DNA from: Patescibacteria group bacterium
Lineage (GTDB): Bacteria; Patescibacteriota; Patescibacteriia; SG8-24
Direction of reading: 5' to 3'
Length of the DNA: 64,000 bases
NCBI GenBank assembly: GCA_041667185.1
Contig: JBAYFM010000008.1
Span: 1,714 to 65,713 of the forward strand
A program made the translations under genes and the position numbers. This document shows, piece after piece, positions 2,503 to 63,950 of this stretch; the first letter of the stretch is position 1, and each line of letters starts with the position of its first letter. Below the pieces are notes generated by a model that ran no database searches, had not been told where the DNA came from, and saw only the letters and a list, made by a program, of their open reading frames with translations.

Positions 2503-3785
2503 TTCATTCGAAATATTCCCGCGCTTGCTCGCGGAATTTGACGTTCTCGAATTTGGCTGCCTGGGGTTCGGCCAAAGGCATCGATATCCTGGCCACCGCC
2601 GATTTCACGCATCCGAAATGGCTCGCGGAGATCGAGGAAAAATTGGAACCGGCCGAGGAAGGCTTGTTCAGGATTAAGGCTAAATATGCGGCGGAAGACG
2701 GCGATTCGGCGTATGAGGCCGCTCCGCGCGCCTTGGCCGGCCGGCCGGTCAGGTTTTTCCTGTCGACCGAGGTCGCCTGCATCTATAAACAGGGCGGCCG
2801 GACGCGACGGCTGCACCTGGTTCTGTGTTGTCCGGATCTGGCCGCGGTCAAAAAACTGAACGCCAAGCTGGAAGCGCTGGAATGCAATCTCAGGTCCGAC
2901 GGCCGTCCGATCCTGGGACTCTCGGCCAAGGAACTTCTGAAAATTTTATTGGAAGCCGACCCGCGGAGCCTGATGATCCCGGCGCATGCCTGGACGCCAT
3001 GGTTCTCGGTCTTCGGTTCGCAGTCCGGGTTCGATTCGCTCGAGGAATGTTTCGAAGAACTGACGCCGGAGATCCACGCCGTCGAGACCGGCCTGTCGTC
3101 CGATCCGCCGATGAATTGGCGGCTCTCGAAATTGGATGGCGTCATGCTGGTCTCCAATTCCGACGCCCACGGTTTCAAGAATCTGGGTCGCGAGGCCAAT
3201 GTCTTTGACTTGTCCGCGCCGAGCTATCGGGCGATCGCCGATATTTTTCGCCAGCGCGACCGCAAGAAATTCCTCCACACCATCGAGTTCTTTCCAGAAG
3301 AGGGGAAATATCATGTCGACGGCCATCGGGCCTGCGATTTTTTCTGCGAGCCGGCGGAAACGCGGAAGCGCAAGGGTCTGTGTCCGAAGTGCGGTAAGGA
3401 ATTGACGCGCGGCGTTCTGGGCCGGGTCGAAGTCCTGGCCGACCGTCCGGACGGCGTCAGGCCGGCATCCGCCGTTGATTTTCGGCGCATCGTGCCGCTC
3501 GAAGAAGTCGTCGCCAGCGTGCTGGACAAAGGCAAGGGGACCAAAGCCGTGATCGCGCTGTGGCGCAAACTCGTCTCCGAGATCGGACCGGAATTCGACG
3601 TGTTGCTTGATGCTGATCTTAAGACCATCGAACGGGTCGGCGGCGCCAGAGTGGCCGAGGCCATGCAGCGAATGCGCCGGGGCGAGCTGGTCATCCGTCC
3701 GGGTTACGACGGCGTCTTCGGCGAGGTCAGAATCTTCGAGGATCAGAAGACCGGGTCGAACCAGCAGAGCAGGTTGTTGATCTGA
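2478..3785 (+). CDS. PHP-domain nuclease, endonuclease Q (EndoQ)-like, with C-terminal zinc ribbon
   Basis: N-terminal MRYIADLHIHSKYSRACS is a PHP-domain metal-binding motif, as in EndoQ. CPKCGKELTRG zinc ribbon near the C-terminus. Start chosen at M27 of ORF 2400-3785 (ATG 2478). Confidence 0.6.
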   Translation: MRYIADLHIHSKYSRACSRNLTFSNLAAWGSAKGIDILATADFTHPKWLAEIEEKLEPAEEGLFRIKAKYAAEDGDSAYEAAPRALAGRPVRFFLSTEVACIYKQGGRTRRLHLVLCCPDLAAVKKLNAKLEALECNLRSDGRPILGLSAKELLKILLEADPRSLMIPAHAWTPWFSVFGSQSGFDSLEECFEELTPEIHAVETGLSSDPPMNWRLSKLDGVMLVSNSDAHGFKNLGREANVFDLSAPSYRAIADIFRQRDRKKFLHTIEFFPEEGKYHVDGHRACDFFCEPAETRKRKGLCPKCGKELTRGVLGRVEVLADRPDGVRPASAVDFRRIVPLEEVVASVLDKGKGTKAVIALWRKLVSEIGPEFDVLLDADLKTIERVGGARVAEAMQRMRRGELVIRPGYDGVFGEVRIFEDQKTGSNQQSRLLI

Positions 3786-3842: not shown

Positions 3843-4096
3843 AGAAAAGAGCAGCGTATTTTTGCTCTTGGCCGTCCTCCTCATTTAACCGCCCGATTTT
3901 GGCGGCTTCATGGCGGCCCGTCTATTCTCAATGATTTTGGAGCCCGAGGGGTCCTCCTCTCCGCCTTCGGGTTTATTCCAGCCTTGCGGCCAGGGCTCTA
4001 CTTTCAAGATAGCACGGGTTCTCATACCCGGCGCAAGTACCCTGTCAAGCCCCAGTTAAAATTTGTCGACCGGGTGTCGTAAAATCGGATGTCAAC

Positions 4097-5501: not shown

Positions 5502-6887
5502 TTAGAGGCTCTTGGTGAAGTCGAGGAGCAGATTGCGCTCGGGCGGCGGCAAGGAGGAAGCTTTTTTCTCGATGAAATCTTTGATGTCCTGGGCGGTGAT
5601 GAGCTCCTTGTTTATGAGTTCGATGGCGACGGCCGCGAAGTTCTCGGCGCGGTTGCTCGTCAGGTTCGGGGTTGCGGCGTAAACCCGGTCAAGATCAACC
5701 GCGGATCCGGGTTGGAAGCGGTTGGTGAATTCCAGCCATTTAGCATTTTTGCTTTTTATGAGGCGGCCGTGGAATTCGCGGATATCTTTATTGACCTTGG
5801 CGTGTCGGGTCTCGAAAGCGTTCATTTTTTCGAGCGTACGGACGACCGCGTGGTCATCGGGGTAGCGCTTCGTTCCCTCGACCAGCAGGTCGTCGGAATA
5901 TTCCTGGTCGAATTCCACGGCGTTGCCGTAGTCGATGATGAAGACTTTGGGTCGTTCGGACGCGGAGCCGGCCGGCGGCTGTTCGATCCCGCCCCGGATT
6001 AGGAAATTGCGGTGGTGGGCGTCGCGGTAGGCGAGACCGTTCTGATGGAACAGGTCCATGGTGTTCTTGATCTGCGTGATGATCGCCGAGTCGACTCGGA
6101 AGCCGGATTCGCCCAGGAAACGGAAGATCTTCTCCGAGTTCTCGCTGAAGACCTTGGTCTCTTCGAAGTCGCGCGCGGCCGGATCTTTGGCCTTACCGCC
6201 GGGTGCGTTGAATTGTAGGATCTCGCTCACGGTCTGCATCAGGTCTTCGAAGCGCATGGAGTCGACATCGGCTGCGAGGTGGATGGTCTTCGGATGGCGC
6301 CTGATGATCTCTTTATACAGTCCGATCGCGAGATCGTCGCCTTTGATCAGGTCCATCATGAACAGTTCGACGCGATCCGTCGGCAGATCCTCCTTGGTCA
6401 GGTTGCGCAGGCGGTCCCGGACCGATTTTTTGGTGATCGGCAGGTCGCGGTATAAGTAAGCGCGCGGCACGCTGGCATAGTCTGGATCGTCAGCCTTCAG
6501 TTCGGCGATCTCACGGGCGCGGCACTGAAGGTCGTACTCGCGCTTGCCGACGCCGCCATGGTAGATCTTGATGATCTTGGTGGCCTGGTCCGGTCCCAGG
6601 ATGATGTCGCAAGCCTTGAGTTCTTCGAAGATCTCCGTAGGCAGCTCGTTTTCGTCGAATTTCAGGATGACGCCATTATTGCCCTCGCCAAGTTTGACCA
6701 GGTGCAGTTCGAGCAGGTCTTCGAGCGCCGCGTCGATCCGTCTTTCTTTTTCCGGCGTAGCTTCGGTCTCCAGACCGGTTTTATCGGCGGTTTCGGAGGC
6801 AGCTTCCGGCATGGCCGGACACTCGTTCTCGTGTCTGCCGACGCCGCCGCAATAACGGCATTTTTCCATATATTTTTTATTCAGCAC
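5502..6887 (-). CDS. protein-kinase-like fold protein with N-terminal zinc finger (hypothetical)
   Basis: CRYCGGVGRHENEC zinc knuckle at the N-terminus. C-terminal half has a catalytic-loop-like AYRDAHHRNFLIRG and a DFG-like VFIIDYGNA, consistent with a eukaryotic-like/RIO/Kdo-type kinase fold. Confidence 0.55.
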   Translation of the reverse strand: MLNKKYMEKCRYCGGVGRHENECPAMPEAASETADKTGLETEATPEKERRIDAALEDLLELHLVKLGEGNNGVILKFDENELPTEIFEELKACDIILGPDQATKIIKIYHGGVGKREYDLQCRAREIAELKADDPDYASVPRAYLYRDLPITKKSVRDRLRNLTKEDLPTDRVELFMMDLIKGDDLAIGLYKEIIRRHPKTIHLAADVDSMRFEDLMQTVSEILQFNAPGGKAKDPAARDFEETKVFSENSEKIFRFLGESGFRVDSAIITQIKNTMDLFHQNGLAYRDAHHRNFLIRGGIEQPPAGSASERPKVFIIDYGNAVEFDQEYSDDLLVEGTKRYPDDHAVVRTLEKMNAFETRHAKVNKDIREFHGRLIKSKNAKWLEFTNRFQPGSAVDLDRVYAATPNLTSNRAENFAAVAIELINKELITAQDIKDFIEKKASSLPPPERNLLLDFTKSL

Positions 6888-6988
6888 GGGTAATTCATGT
6901 TTGATACTTAAAATTTTACCATATTTTAGGTCAAAAATCCATATTGACCGGCCTTGGAGCTAAAGGTATCCTAAGCGTTGGATGATTC

Positions 6989-7416
6989 GGTTTGACGGGT
7001 ACATTCAGTACAAATAAAATGGACGAAATACTTGATCATTTTGGCGGACCCTTGGGCTCTTAGCTTAATGGGAAGCCGCGGTTGTGCGGCTTGCGCCGAG
7101 AGGTGGCGGCCTTAGCCGCGCATCTGTAGTGTTCAGTCGCTAGCGCGACTAAACTGCGTCATAGAGCACCCGGTTTGACGAGAACATTCAGAATAAATAA
7201 AACGAACGAGATCCTCGATAATTCTGGTGGACCTGGGCCTGTAGCTTAACGGGAAGCCGTGGTTGTGCGGCTTGCGCCGAGAGGTGGCGGCCTTAGCCGC
7301 GCATTCGTAGTGTTCAGTCGCTGGCGCGACTGAACCGCGTCGTAGAGCAGCCGTTTTGACGAGCACTTTCAGAAACTATAAAAGGACGAGATACTTGATC
7401 ATTTTGGCGGACCCTT
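6989..7416 (+). repeat. two tandem ~182-bp units, each carrying a 5' leader plus a tRNA-Ala 5' fragment interrupted by a 91-nt GC-rich hairpin insert (family-1 element)
   Basis: Units start at GGTTTGACG at 6989, 7172 and 7353. tRNA-Ala 5' fragment GGGCTCTTAGCTTAATGG at 7054-7071 (diverged copy 7235-7252). Inserts at 7072-7162 and 7253-7343 (GGAAGCCGCGGTTGTGCGGCTTGCGCCGAGAGGTGGCGGCCTTAGCCGCG...AGTCGCTAGCGCGACT...). The tRNA sequence then resumes with AGAGCACCCGGTTTG (7163-7177) and breaks in the anticodon loop. Confidence 0.85.
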
Positions 7417-7490
7417 GGGCTCTTAGCTTAATGGCAGAGCACCCGGTTTGCATCCGGGAGACGTGGGTTCGATTCCCACAGGGTCCACCA
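7417..7490 (+). tRNA. tRNA-Ala (anticodon UGC)
   Basis: Acceptor GGGCUCU/AGGGUCC with G3:U70. Anticodon loop UUUGCAU, T-loop UUCGAUU, encoded CCA. Cloverleaf folded by hand. Confidence 0.9.
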
Positions 7491-10263: not shown

Positions 10264-10340
10264 TGGTTGGAGTGGGGGAGTTGGGGAGTGGGGGAGTTGG
10301 GGAGACCGACTCTCCCGCACTTCTCCACTTCCGCACTCTC
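10264..10340. repeat. GGGAG-rich intergenic element (family instance a)
   Basis: GAGTGGGGGAGTTGGGGAG x2, then GACCGACTCTCCCGCACTTCTCCACTTCCGCACTCTC. On the mRNA strand it gives a pyrimidine-rich CTCCCCAACTCCC leader immediately 5' of the kinase start. Confidence 0.6.
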
Positions 10341-11289
10341 ATTTTTTCATCTTGCCAGCCCGGCCTTGGGAGCCGAACAGTTCCATTTTATGGCGCGCGA
10401 CTTCTTTCATCAGTTTTTTCGACGGCGCCAGGAGCGCGCGCGGGTCGATGGTCTTGTGGTTCAGCAGAACAGCCTCGCGCAGACCGGCGGTGAAAGCGAT
10501 GCGCAGGTCGGAATCGATGTTGATCTTCCTGATGCCGTTCGCTACCGCCCGGCTGATCTCGGAGTCCGGGATGCCGACAGCTCCGTCAAGCCGGTCGCAA
10601 TCTCCGAGTTCCGCGCAATGTTCTTTGGTCTTGGCGACCAGTTCCGGCGAGACGCCCGAGGCGCCGTGCAGGACGAGCGGAATTTTGACCAGTGCGTCGA
10701 TCTTTTTCAGCCGTTCGATGTCGAGTTCGGGCGCGATCTTGGATTTGAAAGCGCCGTGGGCCGTGCCGATGGAGATGGCCAGCGAATCACAGCCGGTCGC
10801 TCGGGCGAAGTCCGCGGCCTGTTGCGGGTCGGTGAAAAAAGCCTGTTTTTCCTCGACGCTGACCAGGTCTTCCACGCCTTTAATGGCGCCGATCTCCGCC
10901 TCGACCGAAACTTTTTTCTTTTTCGCCCAGGCGACGACCTGTTTCGTCTTGGCGACGTTCTCTTTATACGGCAGCAGCGAGCCATCGAACATCACGGAGG
11001 TATAACCGGCGGCGATCGCTTTTTTGATGAGCTTCAGGTCCTTGCCGTGGTCGAGGTGAATGGCGACCGGAACCGGCGTGGCGGCGGCGACCCGCATCAG
11101 AGCCAGAAGATAATCCAGGCCGGCGTATTCGATCGCGCCCTCGCTCGTCTGGATGATGACCGGAGATTTTTCCTCGACAGCCGCTTCGATGACCGCCTGC
11201 AGGATCTCCAGATTGTTGACGTTGAAAGCGCCGACGGCGTAGCAACCTTTATCGGCGGCGACCAGGATCTTTTTCGCGCTGCAGAGCAT
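10339..11289 (-). CDS. fba: class II fructose-1,6-bisphosphate aldolase
   Basis: Ketose-bisphosphate aldolase class II features: ...VIIQTSEGAIEY..., PVAIHLDHG, VMFDGS. Confidence 0.9.
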   Translation of the reverse strand: MLCSAKKILVAADKGCYAVGAFNVNNLEILQAVIEAAVEEKSPVIIQTSEGAIEYAGLDYLLALMRVAAATPVPVAIHLDHGKDLKLIKKAIAAGYTSVMFDGSLLPYKENVAKTKQVVAWAKKKKVSVEAEIGAIKGVEDLVSVEEKQAFFTDPQQAADFARATGCDSLAISIGTAHGAFKSKIAPELDIERLKKIDALVKIPLVLHGASGVSPELVAKTKEHCAELGDCDRLDGAVGIPDSEISRAVANGIRKINIDSDLRIAFTAGLREAVLLNHKTIDPRALLAPSKKLMKEVARHKMELFGSQGRAGKMKK

Positions 11290-13258: not shown

Positions 13259-13471
13259 TCAGTCGAACTTTTTCTTATGGATATGTTTGGCGAGTTCGGC
13301 CCGCAGGAGTTCGGCCTGCTTCTCGTCTTCGCCGAGGATCTTTTCGAACAAGGCGATGCAATCCGGACAGTCCATCTCTTTGGCGTCCGCGCAGTAATGT
13401 TTTTCGATGCGCCAAGTGTCGTCGAGTTTCTGCAGCAGCATCTTCACCAGGTTGTAGTTGGCGTTTTTCAT
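13259..13471 (-). CDS. small hypothetical protein with C..C pair (70 aa)
   Basis: MKNANYNLVKMLLQKLDDTWRIEKHYCADAKEMDCPDC... Sits between tkt and rpe in the same orientation. Confidence 0.4.
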   Translation of the reverse strand: MKNANYNLVKMLLQKLDDTWRIEKHYCADAKEMDCPDCIALFEKILGEDEKQAELLRAELAKHIHKKKFD

Positions 13472-14118
13472 AGCTTTTGATTTTCCTGGACGATCCGTTT
13501 CAGTTCGGCGAGAGCGGCCGCGGGATCCGGGCTGTTGGTGAGCGCATTGGCCGCGACCAGGCAGTCGGCTCCGGCTCGGATGAGTTTGGGGGCTGTTTCG
13601 AGATTGACGCCGCCGTCAATGGAAATATTCAGGGCCGGACGGATGACTTTCAGAGCTTCGATCTTGTCGAGCGTGATCGGCAACATGGTTTGGCCGCTGG
13701 CTCCGGGGTTTACGCCCATGATCAGGACGTTCTTGATCTTGTCGAGCATCGGCGTGATCCGCGAGAGCGGCGTGTCGGGGTTGATGGCGATGCCGACCTT
13801 GCCGGATTCCTTGTCAGCTGAGCGCAGGATCAGCTCCTCGCGTTCGGTCGCTTCGATATGGAAAAAGACCCGCGCGGCGCCGGCTGCGAGCCAGACAATG
13901 GCCATGTGTTCCGGGTTGTCGACCATGAGGTGTGCTTCGAACGGGATTCCTTTGAGCAATCCAGGGATCTTTTCCGGGTCGGCCCAGGTGGTGTTCGGCA
14001 CGAAGCGGCCGTCCATGACGTCGATTTGGACCATGACTCCGAGCGGGCGGATCTTTTCGATCTTGGCGATGAATTCTTCCTCGGTCCGGGCGAGGATGGC
14101 GGGAATCACTTGCGGCAT
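13468..14118 (-). CDS. rpe: ribulose-phosphate 3-epimerase
   Basis: MPQVIPAILART...QIDVMDGRFVPN... Start at M50 of ORF 13468-14265; overlaps the rpiB stop by 13 nt. Confidence 0.85.
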   Translation of the reverse strand: MPQVIPAILARTEEEFIAKIEKIRPLGVMVQIDVMDGRFVPNTTWADPEKIPGLLKGIPFEAHLMVDNPEHMAIVWLAAGAARVFFHIEATEREELILRSADKESGKVGIAINPDTPLSRITPMLDKIKNVLIMGVNPGASGQTMLPITLDKIEALKVIRPALNISIDGGVNLETAPKLIRAGADCLVAANALTNSPDPAAALAELKRIVQENQKL

Positions 14119-14594: not shown

Positions 14595-14737
14595 GTCGAT
14601 GAGTCTTTAGCTGCTTCTATATTATAATTCTATCATAATCAGCCCGGGCGCGTCATTAAGCCGGTCTGACGGTAAAATTAGGCGCGCCCCGTCCGATGGT
14701 TTACTTTTATCCGATATCTGCTTATAATTGGCTTCAT

Positions 14738-17700
14738 ATGGCGAAATTTCATCTACCATCGATCGAAGAGGAGCAACTGAAAAAATGGGACGAAAAAGAC
14801 GTTTTCCGCCAGGTCCTGAACAAGCCGGACCAGGGAAAGTCGTTCGTTTTTTTCGAGGGGCCGCCAACGGCCAACGGCAAGCCGGGCATTCATCATGTGC
14901 TCGCGCGGTCGTTCAAGGACGTCATCCTGCGTTTCCGCACCATGCAGGGACACAAGATCGACCGCAAGGCCGGCTGGGACACGCATGGCCTGCCGGTCGA
15001 ACTCGAGGTCGAGAAACAGCTCGGATTCACGCAGAAGAAACAGATCGAGGAGTTCGGCATCGCCAACTTCAACGCCAAGTGCAAGGAGTCGGTCTGGAAG
15101 TATCTCGACATCTGGCAGCAGATGACGAAGCGCATCGCGTTCTGGGTCGATCTCGAACATCCCTACATCACTTACACCAACGATTACATCGAGTCGCTCT
15201 GGTCGATCATCAAGGAGATCGATCGCAAGGGTTTGTTGTACCAAGGTTATCGCGTGACGCCGCACTGCCCGCGCTGCGTGACTTCGCTGTCATCGCACGA
15301 GTTGGCGCAGGGCTACAAGGATGTCGACGATCAGTCGGTCTACGTGAAGTTTCCGATCGATGCTGCGGCCAAGCGCTACTTCCTCGTCTGGACCACGACG
15401 CCGTGGACGCTGCCGGGCAATGACGCTCTCGCTGTCGGCGCGGCCGTGACCTATGCCGAGGTGAAGATGAAAGCGACGGGCGAGACCTATATTTTGGCTA
15501 AAGACAGGCTTGTCAGTCTCGACGGCGAGTACGATATCTTGTCGGAAAAGACCGGGGAGCAGCTGGTCGGCATCGCGTACCAGCCGCTTTATGACACCGC
15601 CAAGGCGTTCACCGCGGCCGCTGAATCTTCACGTCTCGCGAACGCCTACAAAGTTTATGCGGCTGGTTTCGTTTCGACGACCGACGGCACCGGCATCGTC
15701 CACATCGCGCCGGCGTTCGGCGAGGATGACGCGCGTCTGGGCGAAGCGGCCAAGCTGCCGACTCTGCTCACGGTCGATTCGACCGGCATGATGCTGGCCG
15801 AGGCTCCGGGCAAAGGCAGGTTCATCAAGAAGGCCGACGAGGACGTCAAAGCTGATCTCACCGCGCGCGGCCTGCTTTACAAATCCGAGACCTATCGCCA
15901 CGCCTACCCGTTCTGCTGGCGCTGCGGCACGCCGCTCCTGTATTACGCCAAGAATTCCTGGTACATCCGGATGTCCGAGTTGCGCGAGAAACTGCAACAG
16001 CACAACCAGGCGATCAACTGGGTCCCGGATCACATCCGCGACGGCCGTTTCGGCGAGTGGCTGCGCGAGGTCAAGGATTGGGCGCTGTCCCGTGAGCGTT
16101 ATTGGGGGACGCCGCTGCCGATCTGGCGCTGCGAGTCGTGTCAGGAACGCCTGACCATCGGCGGCATGGAAGAGATGAAGAAGCTCGCGCGTCCGGGCAA
16201 TACTTATTATCTGCAGCGCCACGGCGAGGCCGAGAATAACGTTGCGAACGTGGTGAGCTCGTATCCGGAGCTTAAAGAATGGCATCTGACGGCTCAGGGA
16301 CGCGAACAGGTCCAGGTTGCCGCCAAGGAATTGAAGCAGCATGGCATCGATCTGATTTTCGCCTCCGACCTGCTGCGCACCAAAGAGACCGCCGAGATCA
16401 TCGCCGCGGAGCTTGGCTTGCCGGTCGTTTATGATCCGCGCCTGCGCGAGCTTGGCGTCGGCGAGGCCAACGGCAAAACCATCGCGGAATTCCACGCGCA
16501 ATTCGCGAGCAAACTGGAACGTTTCGACAAGCCGGCCGTCGGCGGCGAGAATCTGCGCGACTGCCGCCGTCGCTTGGTCGCGTTCGTCAAAGAACTGGAA
16601 GCGAAATATTCCGGCCAGCGAATCCTGATCGTGAGCCACGGCGATCCGATCTGGATGCTGGATTCCGGATTCGGCGGCGCGAGCGACGAAGAGACATTGA
16701 CGTGGCGGTATAACGCCGTCGGCGCGTTCAGCGAGTTCCGGCCGGATGGCCTGCCGCGCGACGATCAGGGCCGCATCGATCTGCACCGCCCCTATGTCGA
16801 TGAGGCGGCGCTCGCGTGTCCCAAATGTTCTGGCGCCATGAAACGGTCGACCGAGGTTCTCGATTGCTGGTTCGACTCGGGCGCCATGCCGTTCGCGCAA
16901 TGGCACTACCCCTTCGAGAACGCCGAACGCATCGACCAGGGCCGGAATTTCCCAGCCGACTACATCTCCGAAGCCATCGATCAGACCCGCGGCTGGTTCT
17001 ACACCCTCCTCGCGGTCTCGACCCTGCTCGACAAGCCGACGCCGCCCTACAAGAACGTCATCTGCCTCGGCCACGTGCTCGATGCCAAAGGCCAGAAGAT
17101 GTCCAAGTCCAAGGGCAATGTCGTCGATCCCTGGCTGATGATCTCCAAGTACGGCGCCGACGCCATCCGTTATCATTTCTTCACCGTGAACCAGCCGGGC
17201 GAACCGAAATGTTTCGACGAGAAGTCGCTCGACGAGGTGACGAAGAAAGTTTTCCTGATCCTCTGGAACGTCCTGACTTTCTGGCAGATGTATGCCGGGG
17301 AGAAAGCGCGTGCGACCGACGCATCGCCGGCTTCGCAGAACGAACTCGACCGCTGGATCCTGGCGGAACTGGCCGAACTCGGCTCGCAGCTCACCGGACG
17401 ACTGGAGAGTTACCAGGTCGTCGACGCCTGCCGCAGCCTGGGCGACTTCATCAACAGCCTGTCCACCTGGTACCTGCGCCGCAGCCGCGACCGTTTCAAG
17501 GGCGAGCCGACGGAGCGCCAGGCAGCCGTAGAAACGCTGGGTTACGTGCTTTTGACGCTGTCTCGGCTCATGGCGCCGTTCACGCCGTTCTTGGCCGAGG
17601 CACTGTACGCCGAGGTTGGCGGGCCGCTGGCTTCGGTCCACTTGGACGCGTGGCCGACGCTGAAGTCGCTTGAAGACGCGACCTTGCGCACCAAGATGGA

Positions 17701-18187
17701 GTTCGTGCGCCAGGCCGCTTCGCTCGGACTCGAGAAGCGCGCTGTCGCCGGCATTCCGGTGCGCCAGGCACTCGCCAAAGCGACGGTCCGTTCGGTCCAG
17801 GTTTTCGACCAGTGGATGAAAGAGATCGTGGCCGTGGAACTCAACGTCGAAGCGGTCGAGTCCGAGGTGATCAAGGAGGCGAAAGATGCCGCGGTCGAAC
17901 TCGACACCAACATCACGCCGGAACTCCGCCGCAAAGGCGCGGTCCGCGAACTCGTCCGCAACATCAACGACCTGCGCAAGACCGCTGGACTCACGGTGCA
18001 TGATCGCATCGTCTTGAATTGGAATGCCACCGGCGAATTCTGGCCGCAGGTCTTTGCCGAACATCGCGAGAGCTTGCTCAAAGACGTGCTGGCCGCGGAT
18101 ATCGCGGTCGGTTCCTCTGGCGAACTCGGCAACCGCGAGCTCGAGGTCGCCGGCGAGAAGGTCTGGCTCGGCATCAATAAAGTCTGA
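14738..18187 (+). CDS. ileS: isoleucyl-tRNA synthetase (type 2) with an inserted histidine-phosphatase (PGAM-like) domain
   Basis: EGPPTANGKPGIHH (HIGH class I), KMSKSKGN, editing/CP1 region, Zn knuckles CESC...CPKC. About 190 aa between the knuckles (nt ~16195-16775) carry RHGEAE, SDLLRTKETA and IVSHGD motifs of the histidine phosphatase superfamily. Start at MAKFHLPS (14738), with TATAAT 8 nt upstream. Confidence 0.9.
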   Translation: MAKFHLPSIEEEQLKKWDEKDVFRQVLNKPDQGKSFVFFEGPPTANGKPGIHHVLARSFKDVILRFRTMQGHKIDRKAGWDTHGLPVELEVEKQLGFTQKKQIEEFGIANFNAKCKESVWKYLDIWQQMTKRIAFWVDLEHPYITYTNDYIESLWSIIKEIDRKGLLYQGYRVTPHCPRCVTSLSSHELAQGYKDVDDQSVYVKFPIDAAAKRYFLVWTTTPWTLPGNDALAVGAAVTYAEVKMKATGETYILAKDRLVSLDGEYDILSEKTGEQLVGIAYQPLYDTAKAFTAAAESSRLANAYKVYAAGFVSTTDGTGIVHIAPAFGEDDARLGEAAKLPTLLTVDSTGMMLAEAPGKGRFIKKADEDVKADLTARGLLYKSETYRHAYPFCWRCGTPLLYYAKNSWYIRMSELREKLQQHNQAINWVPDHIRDGRFGEWLREVKDWALSRERYWGTPLPIWRCESCQERLTIGGMEEMKKLARPGNTYYLQRHGEAENNVANVVSSYPELKEWHLTAQGREQVQVAAKELKQHGIDLIFASDLLRTKETAEIIAAELGLPVVYDPRLRELGVGEANGKTIAEFHAQFASKLERFDKPAVGGENLRDCRRRLVAFVKELEAKYSGQRILIVSHGDPIWMLDSGFGGASDEETLTWRYNAVGAFSEFRPDGLPRDDQGRIDLHRPYVDEAALACPKCSGAMKRSTEVLDCWFDSGAMPFAQWHYPFENAERIDQGRNFPADYISEAIDQTRGWFYTLLAVSTLLDKPTPPYKNVICLGHVLDAKGQKMSKSKGNVVDPWLMISKYGADAIRYHFFTVNQPGEPKCFDEKSLDEVTKKVFLILWNVLTFWQMYAGEKARATDASPASQNELDRWILAELAELGSQLTGRLESYQVVDACRSLGDFINSLSTWYLRRSRDRFKGEPTERQAAVETLGYVLLTLSRLMAPFTPFLAEALYAEVGGPLASVHLDAWPTLKSLEDATLRTKMEFVRQAASLGLEKRAVAGIPVRQALAKATVRSVQVFDQWMKEIVAVELNVEAVESEVIKEAKDAAVELDTNITPELRRKGAVRELVRNINDLRKTAGLTVHDRIVLNWNATGEFWPQVFAEHRESLLKDVLAADIAVGSSGELGNRELEVAGEKVWLGINKV

Positions 18188-18300
18188 TAGGCTGAAGGAG
18201 TAGCGGAGTCAGGGAGAGACGGAGTCATGGAAGAACATCGATTCTCCCGCACTCTCACAAACTCCCTGACTCCGTCTCTCCCCAACTCCCATACTTCCGT
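18188..18300. repeat. GGGAG-rich inverted-repeat intergenic element (instance b)
   Basis: GGAGTCAGGGAGAGACGGAGTCA ... CTCCCTGACTCCGTCTCTCCCCAACTCCCA immediately 5' of the ruvA ATG. Confidence 0.65.
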
Positions 18301-19973: not shown

Positions 19974-20260
19974 GTGCGCCCGTAGTACAACGGATAAGCC
20001 CGCTTGATATAATAAGGAAAAGATATGCGGGCTTGCGGCCAGAGGTGGCGGCCTTAGCCGCGTGTCTATAATGTCCGATTGCTGCGCAACCGGACTGAGC
20101 CTAAGCCCGCTTGATATAATAAGGAAAAGATATGCGGGCTTGCGGCCAGAGGTGGCGGCCTTAGCCGCGTGTCTATAATGTCCGATTGCTGCGCAACCGG
20201 ACTGAGCCGTAGAATGCGATCTTTAAAACCCCATCAGTAGACGGAAGTCGTCGATTTTTT
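19974..20260 (+). repeat. tRNA-Arg 5' fragment (acceptor to D-loop), two tandem family-1 hairpin elements (R1, R2), then a short tRNA fragment
   Basis: GTGCGCCCGTAGTACAACGGATA (19974-19996) matches the tRNA-Arg 5' end. R1 19997-20103 and R2 20104-20210 are near-identical (AGCCCGC-ATrich loop-GCGGGCT, TGCGGCCAGAGGTGGCGGCCTTAGCCGCG, GTCCGATTGCTGCGCAACCGGAC). AGAATGCGA (20211-20219) is the tRNA D-stem 3' / anticodon-stem 5' side. Confidence 0.85.
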
Positions 20261-20262
20261 GT

Positions 20263-20337
20263 GCGCCCGTAGTTCAACGGATAGAATGCGAGCCTCCGAA
20301 GCTTGAGATCTAAGTTCGATTCTTAGCGGGCGCACCA
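20263..20337 (+). tRNA. tRNA-Arg (anticodon CCG)
   Basis: Acceptor GCGCCCG/CGGGCGC, anticodon loop CUCCGAA, T-loop UUCGAUU, discriminator A, CCA encoded. Confidence 0.9.
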
Positions 20338-21515: not shown

Positions 21516-23459
21516 TTACTGGACTTTGCTCTTTCCTGCGGCCAACGGGTCTTGATCGAGCATCGTAGTGAGGGGCATCTGGGAAAGGATGATCGGTTGG
21601 CCCGTGGTCTTGTCCCGGGCCTCGAGGATGAGCGCGTCGATCAGGGTCGGAGTCCGTCCGGTCTGATCTTCGGTGGGCGTCAGCGCCACATCGAAAGACA
21701 GCCGCAGATTCTTGATGGTGGTCGGCAGCCAGTTGAGGGTCCAGATGATCTTCTCGGCGGCGGCGTCGAATTTCAGGTCGCCGGCGTCGATGTTCGAGCT
21801 GCCGGTCCAAACGACGTTCGCTGGCAGTCTGGCTGACAGCTTCAGGTCCACGAGATCGTGAAGGGTGTTGGCGATGGTCCAGTTGATCCGGTAGGTCGTC
21901 GCCTGGCCGACGGTCGGCGGCAGCGGACCCGTACCGATCGGCAGCCCGTCGGTGTTGAAGTAGCGTGCTTCGGCGGCCAATTTGACGTCGCTATTCAGCG
22001 TGGCGGCGAGAGGCGGAGTCTGGATCGTGCGGTCGGCTTCTTCCCCGTCAATGGTCTTGATATCGGCTTCGACCCGGGCCGTGACGCGATAATCCTTGTC
22101 CGGAGCAGTCTCAAGCGGGGCGGCGAGAAGCGGCAGGTCGAAGTTGATAGTGCCTTCGTCCTCGGGCGCGATCTTGCCCAGAGCGGTGATCTGTTTTTTG
22201 GTCCAGGTGATGCGATTCTTGTCCCGCAGGCCTTGCTGCTTGTCGCGCAGGTTGTTCCAGAGAACGACAGCCGGCAGGTCGGGAACGGTCTCCAGGATCG
22301 CAGTCAGGGTCACATCTTCCAGGATCACCCGGCCGGTGTTCTTGTAGGTGATGGAATAATGGAGTTGATCGCCGAAAGCCGCCGCCTGGTCGCCGGTCTT
22401 GCCGTTCAGGATCAGGGCCACCATCAGTTGTCCCTCGAGCACCTGAGTCGTGAAAGCGGCTTTTTTCTGCGGCTGGAAAGCGTCATTTGCGTCCAGATAG
22501 CCGATCTCGGCCGGGATCTCGATATCGCCTTTCGCTTCCGCGGCGAACGAGCCGGTTATCTTGACGTGTTGTTCGACAAGCGGCGCCAGCGTCTCGATCG
22601 GCCACTCGGTCAGCTTCTCGTCGAGCGCCGCCGGTTCGGCGGTCTCGGGGATGAAATTTTGCGGATAGCTGACTCGCAGCCGGAGTTTGTTCAGGTCCGC
22701 GTCCGCGGTGTTGACGAAGCCGAAATCGATGACGATCTTGTCGCCGGGCATGATCTTGGCCGGACCCGTGGCGCCGAGTTCGATCATCGAGTCGGTGACG
22801 ATCAGTGCGCGCGTGGCGACCTTCTGGAACTCGGAGTTGAAGTCGGCCGGCCGGTAGGTGAGGATCGCCTGGAGATCGAGCTGTTTCGCGAGCGGCGCGG
22901 TGATCACGCCTTCGACCGTTATCGAGCCGCCTTTGCCGGGGGCGATGGAACCGATCTTCCAGGTCGGTTCGGTCGAGGCCGGATCGAATCTGGTGGCGCT
23001 GAATTCTTTGGGCAGGCGCAGTTCGAGCGAGGCGGTGCCGAGAGCGATGTGCTCCTGGTTGCGGTAAGCGATGCGGAAAGAGATCGGCTGACCGCTCTTG
23101 ATTTCGCCCGGACCCTCGATCTCGACCGTCACGCCTTCGCCGCTGAATTTCTTGTCGCCAGGCGAGAAAAAGAAGAAGCCGGCCCAGGAGACCGCGGCCA
23201 GGAAAGCGAAAAAGATGACCAGGCCGAGCAGCAGTTTTTTAGCCATCGAAGGGTTGGCTTGTTCGAGTTTTGTCATGTCCCGCTGCTCTTGGTCGGTGGA
23301 GTCGTAGATCGAGTGCAATTCTTTCTCGAGTTCCGCCGGTGAGACCTGCGGCTGGTCTTTGCTCGGAACGGCGGCCGGCGTCTGGGCCGGCTCGGGCGGA
23401 AGTTTTTTCGGGGGTTGTCCGCCGGCGGATGAGGGCAAGGTTTTTTTGTGGAAAGGCAT
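21516..23459 (-). CDS. large membrane-anchored surface protein with repeated beta-sandwich-like segments (hypothetical)
   Basis: Cytoplasmic Pro-rich N-terminus, single TM (LLLGLVIFFAFLAAVSWAGFFFF), long T/V/D-rich extracellular region. Protein-like composition; the antisense + ORF is rejected. Confidence 0.6.
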   Translation of the reverse strand: MPFHKKTLPSSAGGQPPKKLPPEPAQTPAAVPSKDQPQVSPAELEKELHSIYDSTDQEQRDMTKLEQANPSMAKKLLLGLVIFFAFLAAVSWAGFFFFSPGDKKFSGEGVTVEIEGPGEIKSGQPISFRIAYRNQEHIALGTASLELRLPKEFSATRFDPASTEPTWKIGSIAPGKGGSITVEGVITAPLAKQLDLQAILTYRPADFNSEFQKVATRALIVTDSMIELGATGPAKIMPGDKIVIDFGFVNTADADLNKLRLRVSYPQNFIPETAEPAALDEKLTEWPIETLAPLVEQHVKITGSFAAEAKGDIEIPAEIGYLDANDAFQPQKKAAFTTQVLEGQLMVALILNGKTGDQAAAFGDQLHYSITYKNTGRVILEDVTLTAILETVPDLPAVVLWNNLRDKQQGLRDKNRITWTKKQITALGKIAPEDEGTINFDLPLLAAPLETAPDKDYRVTARVEADIKTIDGEEADRTIQTPPLAATLNSDVKLAAEARYFNTDGLPIGTGPLPPTVGQATTYRINWTIANTLHDLVDLKLSARLPANVVWTGSSNIDAGDLKFDAAAEKIIWTLNWLPTTIKNLRLSFDVALTPTEDQTGRTPTLIDALILEARDKTTGQPIILSQMPLTTMLDQDPLAAGKSKVQ

Positions 23460-29284: not shown

Positions 29285-29329
29285 TTTCAGCACTCCAGCA
29301 CTTCCTCACTCTCCCAAACTTCCACCCTT
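29281..29329. repeat. pyrimidine-rich CTCCC/CACTCC leader element (GGGAG family, instance c)
   Basis: GCACTCCAGCACTTCCTCACTCTCCCAAACTTCCACCCTT immediately 5' of the rnhB ATG. Shares CACTCCA/TCCAGCAC/CTCTCCC motifs with instances at 45240 and 63135. Confidence 0.5.
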
Positions 29330-29956
29330 ATGAGCAAAGCCGTGATCCCGACGTTCGAGGAAGAACAAGCGCTCGCAGCGCAGGGTTTTTCGTGCGTCGC
29401 GGGGACTGATGAAGTCGGCTGCGGGTGCTGGGCCGGACCGGTCATGGCGGCGGCGGTGATCTTGCCTGTCGGCGTCGAGTTGATGCTGGTGCGCGATTCC
29501 AAAGCCCTGTCGCCGGCGCAGCGGGAGCGTTCGGCCGAGGAAATCAAGGCCAAAGCCGCGGCCTGGGCGGTCGGTTCGGCTTCGGTCGAGGAAGTCGATC
29601 AGTTGAATATCCGCCGCGCGGCCGCACTCGCCATGACGCGGGCGATCGCGTCCTTGCCGATCCGGCCTGACTACGTCCTGAGCGACGCTTTCCGCATCCC
29701 GGGCCTCGACATTCCGCTCAAGAACATCATCCGCGGCGACGCCAAGGTGGTATCGATCGCGGCCGCTTCGATCATCGCCAAGGTCGCGCGCGACCGGCTC
29801 ATGGACGAGCTGGCCGCGGAACACCCCGGTTACGGTTTCGAGCGGCACAAAGGTTACGGCACCAAAGAGCATCAACAGGCACTGGAGCGCCAGGGTATCT
29901 GCCCAATCCATCGGCGGACCTACGCGCCGATCAAGAAATTTTTGGCCAAAACCTGA
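29330..29956 (+). CDS. rnhB: ribonuclease HII
   Basis: DEVGCGCWAGPV catalytic motif. Confidence 0.9.
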   Translation: MSKAVIPTFEEEQALAAQGFSCVAGTDEVGCGCWAGPVMAAAVILPVGVELMLVRDSKALSPAQRERSAEEIKAKAAAWAVGSASVEEVDQLNIRRAAALAMTRAIASLPIRPDYVLSDAFRIPGLDIPLKNIIRGDAKVVSIAAASIIAKVARDRLMDELAAEHPGYGFERHKGYGTKEHQQALERQGICPIHRRTYAPIKKFLAKT

Positions 29957-38818: not shown

Positions 38819-39371
38819 GTCAGGTCGACCGGATGATCGCCCCGCAGTACTGCGGGGAGGAAAGTCTGAACACCTCCCGCATTCATGCGGGAAAAGGGAC
38901 AATCGCTAACGGCGACCGGGAGCAAGCGTCGGAATTTCTTTTCAATAGCCAATTGGCGAAAGAAGTTTCGCGTCCAAGCCCAGGGAGAGTGCAACAGAAA
39001 ATACACCGCCTGCGCCCCGTGATGACGAGCGAAAGCGAGTCATTTTACGGGGCTAGAAGCGTCACCGGCGCAAGCTAGTGCCGACAAGGCAAGGTTGAAA
39101 TCGTGAGGTAAGAGCTCACGCGGGACTGCGGGGCGTGAGCCGTGAAAGCGGCTTTTACGCCCCCACGGACAAGAACCTTCGGGTTCCAATATCTGGCCGC
39201 GCGAGCGGCGCCGTGGAAAACCCTGTCCGGTGCAAGAGCAAGTTTGGTAGCTCGCAGGCCGCAGTCGCAAGGTTGCGGCCAAGGCCGCTGGCAACAGCGG
39301 TCGCAGAGAGATGATCATCGCCTCGCGGTCAAACGCGGGGTACAAAATTCGGCTTACAGGCCGGCCTGACA
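38819..39371 (+). ncRNA. rnpB: RNase P RNA (bacterial type A)
   Basis: GGAGGAAAGTC (P4 5' strand), GTTGAAATCGTGAGGTAAGAGCTCACGC (GGUAAGAGCGCACC-like P10-12 region), and ACAAAATTCGGCTTACAGG (P4 3' strand ACAGAAnnCGGCUUA). 5'/3' ends can pair as P1 (GTCAGG...CCTGAC). Confidence 0.8.
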
Positions 39372-39377
39372 AGAAAA

Positions 39378-42253: not shown

Positions 42254-42284
42254 ATGATATCCAGTATAGATTATGAGACGGTAA

Positions 42285-42430
42285 AAGTGTAGGAGAGTGC
42301 AGGAGTGGGGGAGTGAGGGAGAGACGGAGTCAGGAAGTGGTGGAGAGACGGAGTGGCGGAGTCAGAGAATTACGAAAAAGCGGGGATTGATGTCCCCGCT
42401 TTTTACTTCTTGATGACTCCGTCTCTTCGT
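42285..42430. repeat. GGGAG-rich inverted-repeat element flanking a bidirectional terminator (instance d)
   Basis: Left arm GGAGAGTGCAGGAGTGGGGGAGTGAGGGAGAGACGGAGTCAGGAAGTGGTGGAGAGACGGAGTGGCGGAGTCAG. Centre AAAAAGCGGGGATTGATGTCCCCGCTTTTT (terminator for rnj). Right arm TGACTCCGTCTCTTCGTCTCTCCCTGACTTC. Confidence 0.7.
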
Positions 42431-42443
42431 CTCTCCCTGACTT

Positions 42444-44306
42444 CTACACTTCGATGATGACCGGCAAAACCATCGGCCGGCGCTTGATGGCGTTGAAGAG
42501 GAATTGGCCGATGTCGTTGCGGATCTTGTTCTTGAGGTGTTCCTCGAAGGCCGGCGATTTCTTGTCGGTGTCGGTGAGGATCTTCTTGACGCGGCTGCGG
42601 GCCTTCTCGATCATCTCCTTGTTTTCGCGCATGTAGACGAAGCCGCGCGAGAGGATGTCGGGCGAACCGACGAGTGCGCCGGTCTTCTTATCGATGGTGG
42701 CGATGATGACGAAGATGCCGTCCTCGGCGAGCATGACGCGGTCGCGCAGCACCACCTGGGAGACGTCGCCGACGCCGAGGCCGTCGACCATGACGTAGTC
42801 GGTCATGACACGCTCCTCGGTCAGGCGTCCGCCGCGGGCGTCGAATTCCATGACCTGGCCGTTCTCGGCGACCATGATGCGGTCGCGCGTGATGCCGACC
42901 TCTTCGCCGACGCGGGCGTGTGCTTCGAGCATGAAGCGGTTGCCGTGGATCGGAACGAGATATTGCGGTTTGACCAGCCGCAGCATGAGCTTAAGATCTT
43001 CCTGTTTGGCGTGGCCGCCGGCGTGGACGTCGAGATTCTGGTAGTGGTAGACGGTCGCGCCGTGTTTGACGAGCGTATCCTTGAGCGTCTGGACGGTCCG
43101 CTCGTTGCCCGGCACGACCGAGGACGAGAAGACGAAGCCGTCGCCTGGTTTCACATAGAGGTAGCGGTGTTCGTTGTTGGCCATGCGCATGAGCACGGCG
43201 TTCTTTTCGCCCTGGGCGCCGGTGCAGAGGATGACGATCTTTTCGTCAGGGAGCTTGCCCGCCGCGCCCTCCTCGATGATGGTGCCGGGCTTGATCTGCA
43301 TGTAGCCGAGCTGGTGGGCGATCTCGATGTTGTTGTTCATGCTCCGCCCCTCGATCAGCAGCTTGCGGCCGTATTTTTCGGCGAGCGTGATGATCTGCTG
43401 GGCGCGCGTCAGGAGCGACGAGAAAGTGCCGATGATGATGCGGCCTTTGGCGCTCTGGAAGATGCGTTCGAGCTCGACTGAAACCTGGCGCTCGGAGATC
43501 TGGTGGCCGGGGCTGTCGGCGTTCGTGGAATCGGACATGATGGCAAGCACGCCCTTCGCGCCGAAGGAAGCGATGTGCGCCAGATCAGCCGGCTCATCGT
43601 TCACCGGGGTGAAATCGAATTTGAAATCGCCGGTGTAGAGGATGGTGCCGTACGGCGTGTGGATCGCCGCGCCGAAAGCGTCGGAGATGTTGTGATTGAC
43701 ATGGAACGGCTCGAAGACGAAGTGCCGGCCGAGCGCGATCTTCATATTGTCCTTCACGAGCTGGATCTTGAGCGACTTGGCGTTGCCGAATTCTTCCTGG
43801 CGCTTGCGGATGATGCCGGCCGTGAGCGGAGCGGTGTAGATGACCGGATTGCCGAGGCGGCTGATCGTGAGCGGGATGCCGCCGATGTGGTCCATGTGTC
43901 CGTGGGTCACGATGACGCCGCGGATATTCTGTTCGCGCCCCTTGAGCGAAGAGATGTTGGGGATGATGTAGTCGATGCCTGGCATGCCCTCTTCGGGGAA
44001 CATCATGCCGATATCAATGATGATGATGTCGGCGCCGCATTCGAGCACAGTGCAGTTGCGGCCGATCTCTTCGAGACCGCCCAAAGCGTAGACCTTGAGC
44101 TTGGGAGCCAGGATCTTGGGTTGCGGCTGTCCGGGTTTGCCGTTCATGACGGGCCGGAACTGGGCCTGGACCGGATTGAGCGGCAGCGGTGGAGCCGGAA
44201 GTTTGATCTGCGGCCGACGGATGGAACCCTGCGCGAGCGGGGACGGTCCGTGGCGATGCCCCGGGCGCTGATGTTGCGGCCGGCGCGGCCTGTTATCTGT
44301 TACCAT
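42444..44306 (-). CDS. rnj: ribonuclease J (metallo-beta-lactamase / beta-CASP RNase)
   Basis: VTHGHMDHIGG motif and beta-CASP region. About 70-aa Pro/Arg/Gln-rich N-terminal extension; an internal start (MNGKPGQ) is possible. Confidence 0.85.
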   Translation of the reverse strand: MVTDNRPRRPQHQRPGHRHGPSPLAQGSIRRPQIKLPAPPLPLNPVQAQFRPVMNGKPGQPQPKILAPKLKVYALGGLEEIGRNCTVLECGADIIIIDIGMMFPEEGMPGIDYIIPNISSLKGREQNIRGVIVTHGHMDHIGGIPLTISRLGNPVIYTAPLTAGIIRKRQEEFGNAKSLKIQLVKDNMKIALGRHFVFEPFHVNHNISDAFGAAIHTPYGTILYTGDFKFDFTPVNDEPADLAHIASFGAKGVLAIMSDSTNADSPGHQISERQVSVELERIFQSAKGRIIIGTFSSLLTRAQQIITLAEKYGRKLLIEGRSMNNNIEIAHQLGYMQIKPGTIIEEGAAGKLPDEKIVILCTGAQGEKNAVLMRMANNEHRYLYVKPGDGFVFSSSVVPGNERTVQTLKDTLVKHGATVYHYQNLDVHAGGHAKQEDLKLMLRLVKPQYLVPIHGNRFMLEAHARVGEEVGITRDRIMVAENGQVMEFDARGGRLTEERVMTDYVMVDGLGVGDVSQVVLRDRVMLAEDGIFVIIATIDKKTGALVGSPDILSRGFVYMRENKEMIEKARSRVKKILTDTDKKSPAFEEHLKNKIRNDIGQFLFNAIKRRPMVLPVIIEV

Positions 44307-45159: not shown

Positions 45160-45300
45160 TTGGTGGGGGAGGCGGAGAGACGGAGTTGGGGAGAGACGGA
45201 GTCAGGGAGAATATAATAGTTCTGACTCCGTATCTCCGTCACTCCATGACTCTATGACCTCGTATCTTCCTCACTTCCAAACTCTCCTCGTATTGATATA
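45160..45300. repeat. GGGAG-rich element (instance e)
   Basis: GGTGGGGGAGGCGGAGAGACGGAGTTGGGGAGAGACGGAGTCAGGGAGAATATAATAGTTCTGACTCCGTATCTCCGTCACTCCATGACTC... Hairpin GGAGTCAG...CTGACTCC. Confidence 0.65.
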
Positions 45301-63028: not shown

Positions 63029-63099
63029 GTGCGGCTGTGCTTATTCAAGTAATGGCCTACCTTATCCGGGGCGCGAAATGGTGTCAAGCCACGTCGCTT

Positions 63100-63175
63100 G
63101 CGAGCGACGTGGTGGAGTGCTGGAGACCAACTAGCTCCCTGACTCCGTCTCTCCATGACTCCAGCACTTCACAAA
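63100..63175. repeat. GGGAG/CTCCC element (instance f)
   Basis: GTGGAGTGCTGGAGACCAACTAGCTCCCTGACTCCGTCTCTCCATGACTCCAGCACTTCAC with IR GTGCTGGAG/CTCCAGCAC. Followed by a minus-strand terminator AACACCCTCCCGCTTGGGGGTGTT+T-run (63170-63200). Confidence 0.6.
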
Positions 63176-63699: not shown

Positions 63700-63950
63700 G
63701 AAAAGAACCCCAGCTGAATTTAGCGCAGGGGCGGGGGAGAGTCAACTCGGGGAGTTTGGGAGAGACGGAGTCGGGGAGTGCTGGAGTTCTGAAGTGCGGG
63801 AGACAGAAGGTGCTGGATTCCCGCTTTCGCGGGAATGACAATTAAAGAGAGTGCGGGAGTTAAGTCCGCTTCTTCGCTCCTTCACTTCCCCGCTCCCATA
63901 CTCCTGCGCCTGTGCCCGTTGATTTTCCGCTCAACAAGCCTTATCATGGC
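63700..63950. repeat. GGGAG-rich element cluster (instance g)
   Basis: GGGGCGGGGGAGAGTCAACTCGGGGAGTTTGGGAGAGACGGAGTCGGGGAGTGCTGGAG...GTGCGGGAGACAG...GAGAGTGCGGGAG..., then the pyrimidine complement CTCCTTCACTTCCCCGCTCCCATACTCC. Confidence 0.6.

Follow-up and report, generated by a model that had tools for sequence, protein, structure and literature searches.

Foldback arrays of GGAG octamers in the non-coding gaps of a Patescibacteria genome

The intergenic repeats in a 64,000-nt stretch of DNA from a Patescibacteria group bacterium (the window) are foldback elements, in which short tandem repeats stand head to head, and they occur in non-coding gaps only; this identity is established, as are their anatomy, dynamics and polarity. 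The explanation that we favour, at a probability of about one half, is that the elements are foldback short-tandem-repeat DNA grown by slippage, and that the copies inside operons are structured intercistronic spacers. An initial annotation of the window had placed a purine-rich repeat at seven or more sites; each of the seven that were listed is present where it had been put, and all are intergenic.

That annotation took a recurring 17-mer as the core of the family. The core, GAGACGGAGTCAGGGAG, does recur, with 10 matches in the window at up to three mismatches compared with 0.28 expected from dinucleotide shuffles, none of which reached 10. The shuffle controls thus confirm a non-random intergenic family with inverted arms, and the objection that the motif might show no enrichment over a shuffled background falls away. 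However, the 17-mer is not the basic unit, since the octamer GGAGNNNN underlies it and the core is simply two neighbouring units, GGAGAGAC and GGAGTCAG. In each element, 3–8 GGAGNNNN octamers in tandem lead into a centre that varies, beyond which the repeat is inverted, as (NNNNCTCC)n. Spacings from GGAG to GGAG peak at 8, 16, 24 and 32 nt (25, 18, 12 and 8 pairs; other spacings 0–6), GGAG is the sole core with period 8 in the window, and period-8 arrays found by Tandem Repeats Finder are confined to the element sites. Phased arrays of at least three units number 10, against 0.57 in shuffles (shuffle maximum 3). The core of 4–5 nt is invariant (GGAGT in the window, GAAGT in the related locus L152), the spacer within the unit is variable and the phasing is strict, with AGAC, TCAG, TCAT, TTGG, TGGG, TGCG and TGCT as the recurrent units. 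Elements measure from ∼35 to 170 nt, with 5 to about 60 nt between the two arrays of a pair, and unit order and centre are different at each site. Unit number varies in 8-nt steps, independently in the two arms of one element, and exact 17–20-mers are common to five of the window sites.

The elements denoted E1–E3 fill stop-to-start gaps of operons, from a few bases after the stop to 3–6 nt before the ATG. E1 (10266–10340) lies in the 76-nt gap from the fba stop (10339–10341, minus strand) to the ATG of a PfkB-family kinase gene (10262–10260, minus strand); its G arm (10269–10308) carries GGAGTGGG/GGAGTTGG four times and then GGAGACCG, and its C arm occupies 10309–10340. Part of this G arm, GGGGGAGTTGGGGAGTGGGGGAGTTGGGGAG (10272–10304, plus strand), matches the consensus for a G-quadruplex, on the antisense strand of the operon. 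E2 (18194–18298) lies in the 113-nt gap between the ileS stop (18185–18187) and the ruvA ATG (18301), with a G arm of five units (18197–18236), a centre at 18237–18243 and a C arm at 18244–18298. E3 (29291–29326, plus strand) is a half element, a degenerate C arm alone (CACTCCAG CACTTCCT CACTCTCC CAAACTTCC), which sits in the 45-nt gap between glmS and rnhB and adjoins the rnhB ATG at 29330.

The other four elements are found where a terminator is followed by a promoter or where two promoters diverge, and are outside mRNA leaders. E4 (42280–42443), between the RNase J stop (42444–42446, minus strand) and the trpS start (42253, minus strand), has a G arm at about 42280–42365, with eight clean units from 42302, and a C arm of three units at 42405–42443. 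One copy had been said to bracket a bidirectional terminator, and the centre of E4 (42375–42404) is indeed a terminator-like hairpin, AAAAAGCGGGGA...TCCCCGCTTTTT, arranged as A5–stem–T5; with an A-tract on one side and a T-tract on the other, it is plausibly bidirectional. E5 (45164–45290) has a G arm at 45164–45213 and a C arm at 45222–45245 that decays to about 45290 and overlaps the stop of an Opp-type binding-protein gene (45271–45273, minus strand); directly adjoining E5, on the minus strand, is the promoter-like site TTGACA-17-CATATT (45158 to 45130). E6 (63113–63171) is strongly asymmetric, with a short G arm (63113–63127) and a C arm at 63135–63171, and a minus-strand terminator-like hairpin lies next to it (63202 to 63177). 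On its other side E6 adjoins a REP-like palindrome, CCACGTCGCTTGCGAGCGACGTGG (63089–63112), a module distinct from the octamer arrays; a palindrome of this kind, CCACGTCG(C/T)T(T/C)GCGA(G/A)CGACGTGG, is also embedded in arrays of the Ga0172379 metagenome (contigs L128, L129, L135, L146 and L149). E7 (63735–63906) is flanked by two promoter-like sites that diverge, one on the minus strand (63745 to 63717) and one on the plus strand (63919 to 63947), and comprises a G arm (63735–63806), an inner hairpin (63816–63838) and a degenerate C arm (63857–63906). The arms have no U-tract and thus do not resemble intrinsic terminators, for which only the E4 centre and the hairpin beside E6 qualify.

Chance low-complexity sequence or an assembly artefact would account for the simple composition of the arms and for nothing else. 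Both are refuted by the shuffle controls, by the occurrence of the same unit vocabulary in other samples (the Ga0172379 contigs) and by E2, which reappears unchanged in a metagenome contig from an independent assembly (L001) and hence is not an artefact of assembly; we give this explanation next to no weight.

All flanking genes have housekeeping functions (PfkB-family kinase, fba, ileS, ruvA, glmS, rnhB, trpS, RNase J and the Opp-type binding protein). The isoleucyl-tRNA synthetase (IleRS) of the host is 100% identical to a protein recorded under 'Patescibacteria group bacterium', and the relatives of the enzyme carry the names Uhrbacteria and Parcubacteria, which places the host among the CPR bacteria; its G+C content of about 60% is unusually high for this group. 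This synthetase (14696–18187, plus strand) contains an inserted histidine-phosphatase domain (His_Phos_1, at about residues 500–670), which is common to all but two of 120 Patescibacteria IleRS homologues among the matches listed. The window also holds tandem duplications of a different kind, at 2354–2501 (65 nt × 2.3), at 6988–7431 (181 nt × 2.4, overlapping tRNA-Ala at 7417–7490) and at 19995–20208 (107 nt × 2.0, 100% identity, just upstream of tRNA-Arg at 20263); the latter two have in common the motif GCGG(G)CTTGCG(G)CC(A/G)GAGGTGGCG.

Translation signals are sparse in this lineage. An SD-like motif (GGAG, GAGG or AGGA at −18 to −4) precedes 6 of 41 genes in the window; in three relatives, about 8 of the 59 genes called have an SD. 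The genes for the PfkB-family kinase, ruvA and rnhB all lack an SD; with ∼85% of genes in the same state, the missing SD is the lineage norm and not peculiar to genes adjoining an element. Since the canonical GGAGG SD is nevertheless present at a minority of genes, the anti-SD is probably functional. A TATAAT-like (−10-like) box was seen 7–15 nt before the ATG of many genes, both in the window and in L152–L154. Taken from the sequence, these start regions suggest widespread leaderless or very short-leader mRNAs, with stop–start coupling inside operons.

The elements had been thought to cover gene 5′ leaders, which holds for E1–E3, whereas E4–E7 lie upstream of promoters or downstream of terminators. 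At E1–E3 the pyrimidine (CTCC) arm reaches the start codon of the PfkB-family kinase, ruvA and rnhB genes, as had been noted. From this position it was proposed that the elements may be leader hairpins which occlude or mimic ribosome-binding sites, the CTCC arm pairing with SD-like GGAG and switching translation. The hairpins themselves were supported by RNA structure prediction, in which both strands form strong hairpins (z = −3.9 to −7.6 for E1, E2, E4 and E5; the predicted fold of E6 is weak). Together with the CTCC arm next to the ATG at E1–E3, a start region that is partly paired in the predicted folds and the minority of genes with a GGAGG SD, this would speak for occlusion. On the other hand, the downstream genes have no SD to occlude, as is the case for 85% of genes, and four of the seven elements are outside leaders.

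Moreover, the folds do not bear the marks of selection for a hairpin. Sense-strand RNA folds worse than antisense RNA in 17 of 23 co-directional spacers (window and Ga0172379 contigs, the gene calls on metagenome contigs being crude), which is the opposite of what would be expected under selection for a regulatory leader hairpin. Nor do the arms co-vary: complementarity is 0.79 between arms of the same element and 0.78 between arms of different elements (P = 0.29), and in contig L147 an AGAC/TCAG arm is paired with a pure AGCACTCC arm. Selection for arm-to-arm pairing was not detected, as there is no excess of complementarity. When a ribosome was modelled as fixed at the upstream stop codon, predicted accessibility of the start region rose in four of seven junction elements (from 0.53 to 0.86 for E1 and from 0.27 to 0.82 for L157), and E2, E3 and one L152 element did not respond. 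A search of Rfam assigned the elements to no family at the gathering score, and at a permissive threshold gave chance-level matches to microRNA hairpins (E = 0.5–1.8). The only sequences of the window that pass are tRNAs and RNase P RNA; the latter (bacterial class A, 38821–39372, plus strand) is 552 nt long against a model of 367 positions, which implies one or more large insertions. On this balance the proposal is supported in part: the strong predicted hairpins stand, and a role for them as switches of ribosome-binding sites is unlikely.

To follow the junctions through evolution, seven syntenic loci recovered via IleRS homologues were compared with the window. The ileS–ruvA spacer of 113 nt corresponds to 96 nt in L152, where a degenerate GAAGT...ACTTC foldback is found, and to 106 nt in L157, where a heptamer foldback (GTAGTTT...CTACAAA) adjoins the true ruvA ATG. 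The same spacer is 9 nt in L156 and L153, 8 nt in L158, 4 nt in L154 and −4 nt (a 4-nt overlap) in L155. Between fba and pfkB there are 76 nt in the window, 92 nt in L152 and 11 nt in L154, and in L153 the gene order is reversed with the genes 3 nt apart; the glmS–rnhB spacer is 45 nt in the window and 2 nt in a relative. Most relatives have −4 to 15 nt at the E1–E3 junctions. In the IleRS tree the element carriers are not sister lineages, and L158, with 83% identity to L152, has no element. Such short junctions in the relatives, together with carriers that are not sisters, argue for repeated gain of elements; repeated precise loss would be the alternative and is less parsimonious. With two window junctions to compare, re-use of the same junction may also be due to chance (by our estimate, P of about 0.09). 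L152 also has elements at places where the window has none. Change by whole units is seen between two related strains of another organism (L143 and L148), which differ by exactly one 8-nt unit, and there is no polymorphism at the window's own sites, the sole other assembly (L001, for E2) being identical. As far as the compared loci indicate, the elements are evolutionarily young and were repeatedly gained at the same tight operon junctions. Close relatives manage with spacers of 2–15 nt at these junctions, so that no conserved regulatory need is apparent, which counts further against the occlusion of ribosome-binding sites.

In L157 (66% IleRS identity), one genome holds foldback arrays of unrelated units (GTAGTTT, GGAGTGAA, GAGGGGTT and GAGGGATT) at 13454–13559, 3389–3457, 3971–4091, 15391–15488 and 23244–23309, and the ruvA start had been misplaced by the gene caller owing to a foldback array. 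In L152, the last codons of a transketolase-subunit gene (6495–6530, minus-strand coding end) follow the same 8-nt period (AAGTNNNA), and pairing between them and the C arm upstream of fba is predicted, so that an arm can reach into a coding 3′-end. The idea that units begin with the stop codon was discarded as a rule; it is true for L152, L157 and E2 and is not so in general, and is no more than a hint of local sequence having seeded the arrays.

Repeated gains at junctions, and the same 17–20-mers at five window sites and on at least nine Ga0172379 contigs, would also be expected if the elements were mobile but non-autonomous (MITE or REP/REPIN), with cut-and-paste transposition by an enzyme supplied in trans, for instance a RAYT of the Y1 family. 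Y1 transposase homologues do occur in the related contigs L153 and L141, and in Geobacter metallireducens insertion sequences keep a constant distance to paired octamer sites of a comparable kind (PMC2700814). However, copies in the window vary in length, unit order and centre, they have no conserved terminal sequence, and by eye no target-site duplication was seen, contrary to the fixed length and conserved ends of a MITE. A tblastn search of the window for Y1 homologues found none, and in L153 and L141 the sequences on either side of the Y1 genes are palindromes of an unrelated kind instead of octamer arrays. The several unrelated unit types at different sites of L157 are also easier to reconcile with local growth than with copies made from a master element. 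Mobility of this kind thus appears doubtful, and a link with RAYT was rejected on the evidence of the window, L153 and L141. The Y1 (IS200/RAYT-like) genes at 6676–7296 in L153 and 6512–7054 in L141 have their own inverted palindromes, GGTTCCTGGAACC or GGTGTCAGGTAC.

The REP/BIME elements of enterobacteria are known to affect mRNA stability and translation. Like them and like REPINs, the window elements are extragenic, palindromic, multicopy mosaics of modules that are often found just after stops or between cistrons. REPs are, in contrast, single palindromes of 20–40 nt in which GTAG is conserved, accompanied by a cognate RAYT gene, whereas the window arms are phased octamer arrays; the elements have no conserved GTAG, and neither the window nor L153 nor L141 has a Y1 gene flanked by octamer arrays.

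The arrangement of the arms follows a strict order. Where two arrays face each other within 200 nt, the G-rich one comes first, reading 5′ to 3′, and the C-rich one second, at about 70:2 overall. For the GGAG core the ratio of G-first to reverse order is 4:0 in the window, 13:0 in genomes, 16:1 in metagenomes and 16:0 in viral contigs; in viral contigs the ratio is 11:0 for GGTG, 15:0 for GAAG and 3:1 for GCAG. A detector that presumes no core gave 8:0 at CPR loci overlapping the GGAG genome, metagenome and window set. This order was measured within elements, because an inverted repeat reads purine-first on both strands, which leaves the order of arms in the element as the sole informative measure. 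For the same reason the apparent rule that the purine arm faces the upstream gene (7 of 7) is uninformative and was set aside. Hairpin thermodynamics is symmetric and cannot explain the G-first order, and selection on leaders alone cannot do so either, as E4–E7 are outside leaders and yet G-first. No description of the rule was found in a literature search.

The exact 20-mer GGAGAGACGGAGTCAGGGAG has no match in 185,579 species-representative genomes, and the literature search returned nothing on the literal repeat sequences. The unit vocabulary of the window is dense on at least nine Ga0172379 metagenome contigs, with about 40 elements in 90 kb, and no orthologous overlap was found between these contigs and the window. 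A generic pattern of five units, in which the GGAG core was forced by the search, occurs at 120 or more loci, in Cyanobacteria, Planctomycetota, Chloroflexota, Bacteroidales, Acidobacteriota and others, and in 106 viral contigs. In viral contigs the control cores GGTG, GCAG, GACC and GAAG occur at no fewer than 120, 64, 52 and 79 loci compared with 106 for GGAG, and specificity for GGAG across phyla was rejected on this ground. With control cores about equally frequent, octamer arrays are general and GGAG is merely the version of the host lineage. The elements are thus a lineage-specific variant of a widespread and poorly characterised class of repeat DNA.

The closest described system is the paired 'class 2 global regulator binding sites' of G. 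metallireducens, with three tandem repeats of ∼8 nt, TCTCCGTS(Y) (Aklujkar et al. 2009, PMC2700814, Additional file 8). In many intergenic regions two such sites form a pair, one on each strand and a variable distance apart; they were read as sites for IHF/HU or a regulator (PMC2700814). The window unit GGAGAGAC is the complement of TCTCCGTC, and in both systems tandem arrays are paired at variable distance; we take this as resemblance and not as homology. Geobacter belongs to another phylum and has three units per site, whereas the window elements have 3–8. If the arrays were likewise binding sites of a nucleic-acid-binding protein (a global regulator or IHF/HU), the invariant core of 4–5 nt, the variable spacer and the strict phasing would be explained, as would the change of core from genome to genome (GGAGT in the window, GAAGT in L152) and the match of the window unit to the class-2 complement GGAGASAC. 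Against such binding, sites that follow one another at 8 bp lie on different sides of the DNA duplex, a single genome can contain at least five unit types, arrays with many other cores are of about the same frequency, and no candidate protein gene was found. The presence of arrays across phyla and viruses further makes a single cognate protein unlikely, and we regard binding-site arrays as an improbable explanation.

Other tandem repeats with intergenic units of 7–8 nt, a patchy spread over phyla and presumed slippage are the LSSRs (5–11 nt), the STRR heptamers of cyanobacteria and the TAACTGA repeats of Beggiatoaceae. The last are often directly upstream of SD-less start codons (MacGregor 2015, PMC4679880). 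The window elements agree with such simple tandem repeats in their period-8 arrays and, in a related family, in the 8-nt indel between L143 and L148; those repeats are described as direct arrays, whereas the window elements are facing arrays with a fixed G-first order. In Haemophilus influenzae, a tandem heptamer repeat of hmw1A forms one arm of a 5′-UTR hairpin that is cut by RNase III, and the cutting controls expression and is required for change of repeat number (PMC12721329). This is a precedent for RNase III acting at a leader hairpin built from repeats, with the differences that only one hmw1A arm is repetitive, that its pyrimidine-rich repeat is 5′ and that it is a single phase-variable locus of a pathogen.

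In the slippage explanation that we prefer, the arms would grow through slipped-strand replication or repair around a small central palindrome or terminator, the growing strand being the G-rich one with its 3′-end towards the centre. A shared vocabulary of units would spread between sites, and elements would persist where they are harmless. Slippage alone is insufficient for the exact 17–20-mers at five window sites, which need copying between sites. Each transcript across an element would read the purine arm and then the pyrimidine arm, and at E1–E3 the base of the predicted hairpin would set the upstream stop codon beside the downstream ATG. The last 30–50 nt before the ATGs of the PfkB-family kinase, ruvA and rnhB genes contain at most one G each, and being almost free of G they hold neither an SD-like sequence nor a start codon. 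The element could thereby be a structured intercistronic spacer that preserves coupling of termination and reinitiation in a mostly SD-less organism. The long stems, going by the predicted folds, are also plausible double-stranded RNA targets for RNase III, and a cut there would give the downstream gene a clean C-rich leader; no RNase III gene was located within the window. Translational coupling and RNase III processing at the elements are thus what we infer from modelled folds, and E4–E7 are probably inert passengers.

Eukaryotic Foldback elements have inverted arms of short tandem repeats with variable arm length and centre, and in head-to-head fusions of telomere repeats the G-rich strand points to the junction from both sides. 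The facing tandem-repeat arms of the window, with the G-rich strand inward, are like both by analogy only; no transposase or repeat-adding enzyme was found for the window elements, and their centres are often native terminators. A directional variant of array growth, for which we see only a slim chance, is that G-rich units were added to both 3′-ends at a break or stalled site and the ends then joined. The G-first order, the independent arms, the unit of 7–8 nt and the repeated gains would then mark a scar of repeat-adding or slippage-prone DNA synthesis. If true, this would be a prokaryotic and viral counterpart of the head-to-head fusion of telomere repeats, active in many phyla.

CPR genomes are about 1 Mb and tightly packed, so that hairpins of 45–170 nt repeatedly inserted in housekeeping operons are unexpected. 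For genome analysis, octamer arrays break assemblies and mislead gene callers, as for the ruvA start of L157. The G-first rule is a simple, testable regularity of a widespread repeat DNA and suggests that either mutation acts directionally or the sequence before start codons is under a general constraint. Moreover, the stop–start hairpins at ileS–ruvA, fba–pfkB and glmS–rnhB bear on how translation proceeds within operons in largely SD-less organisms.
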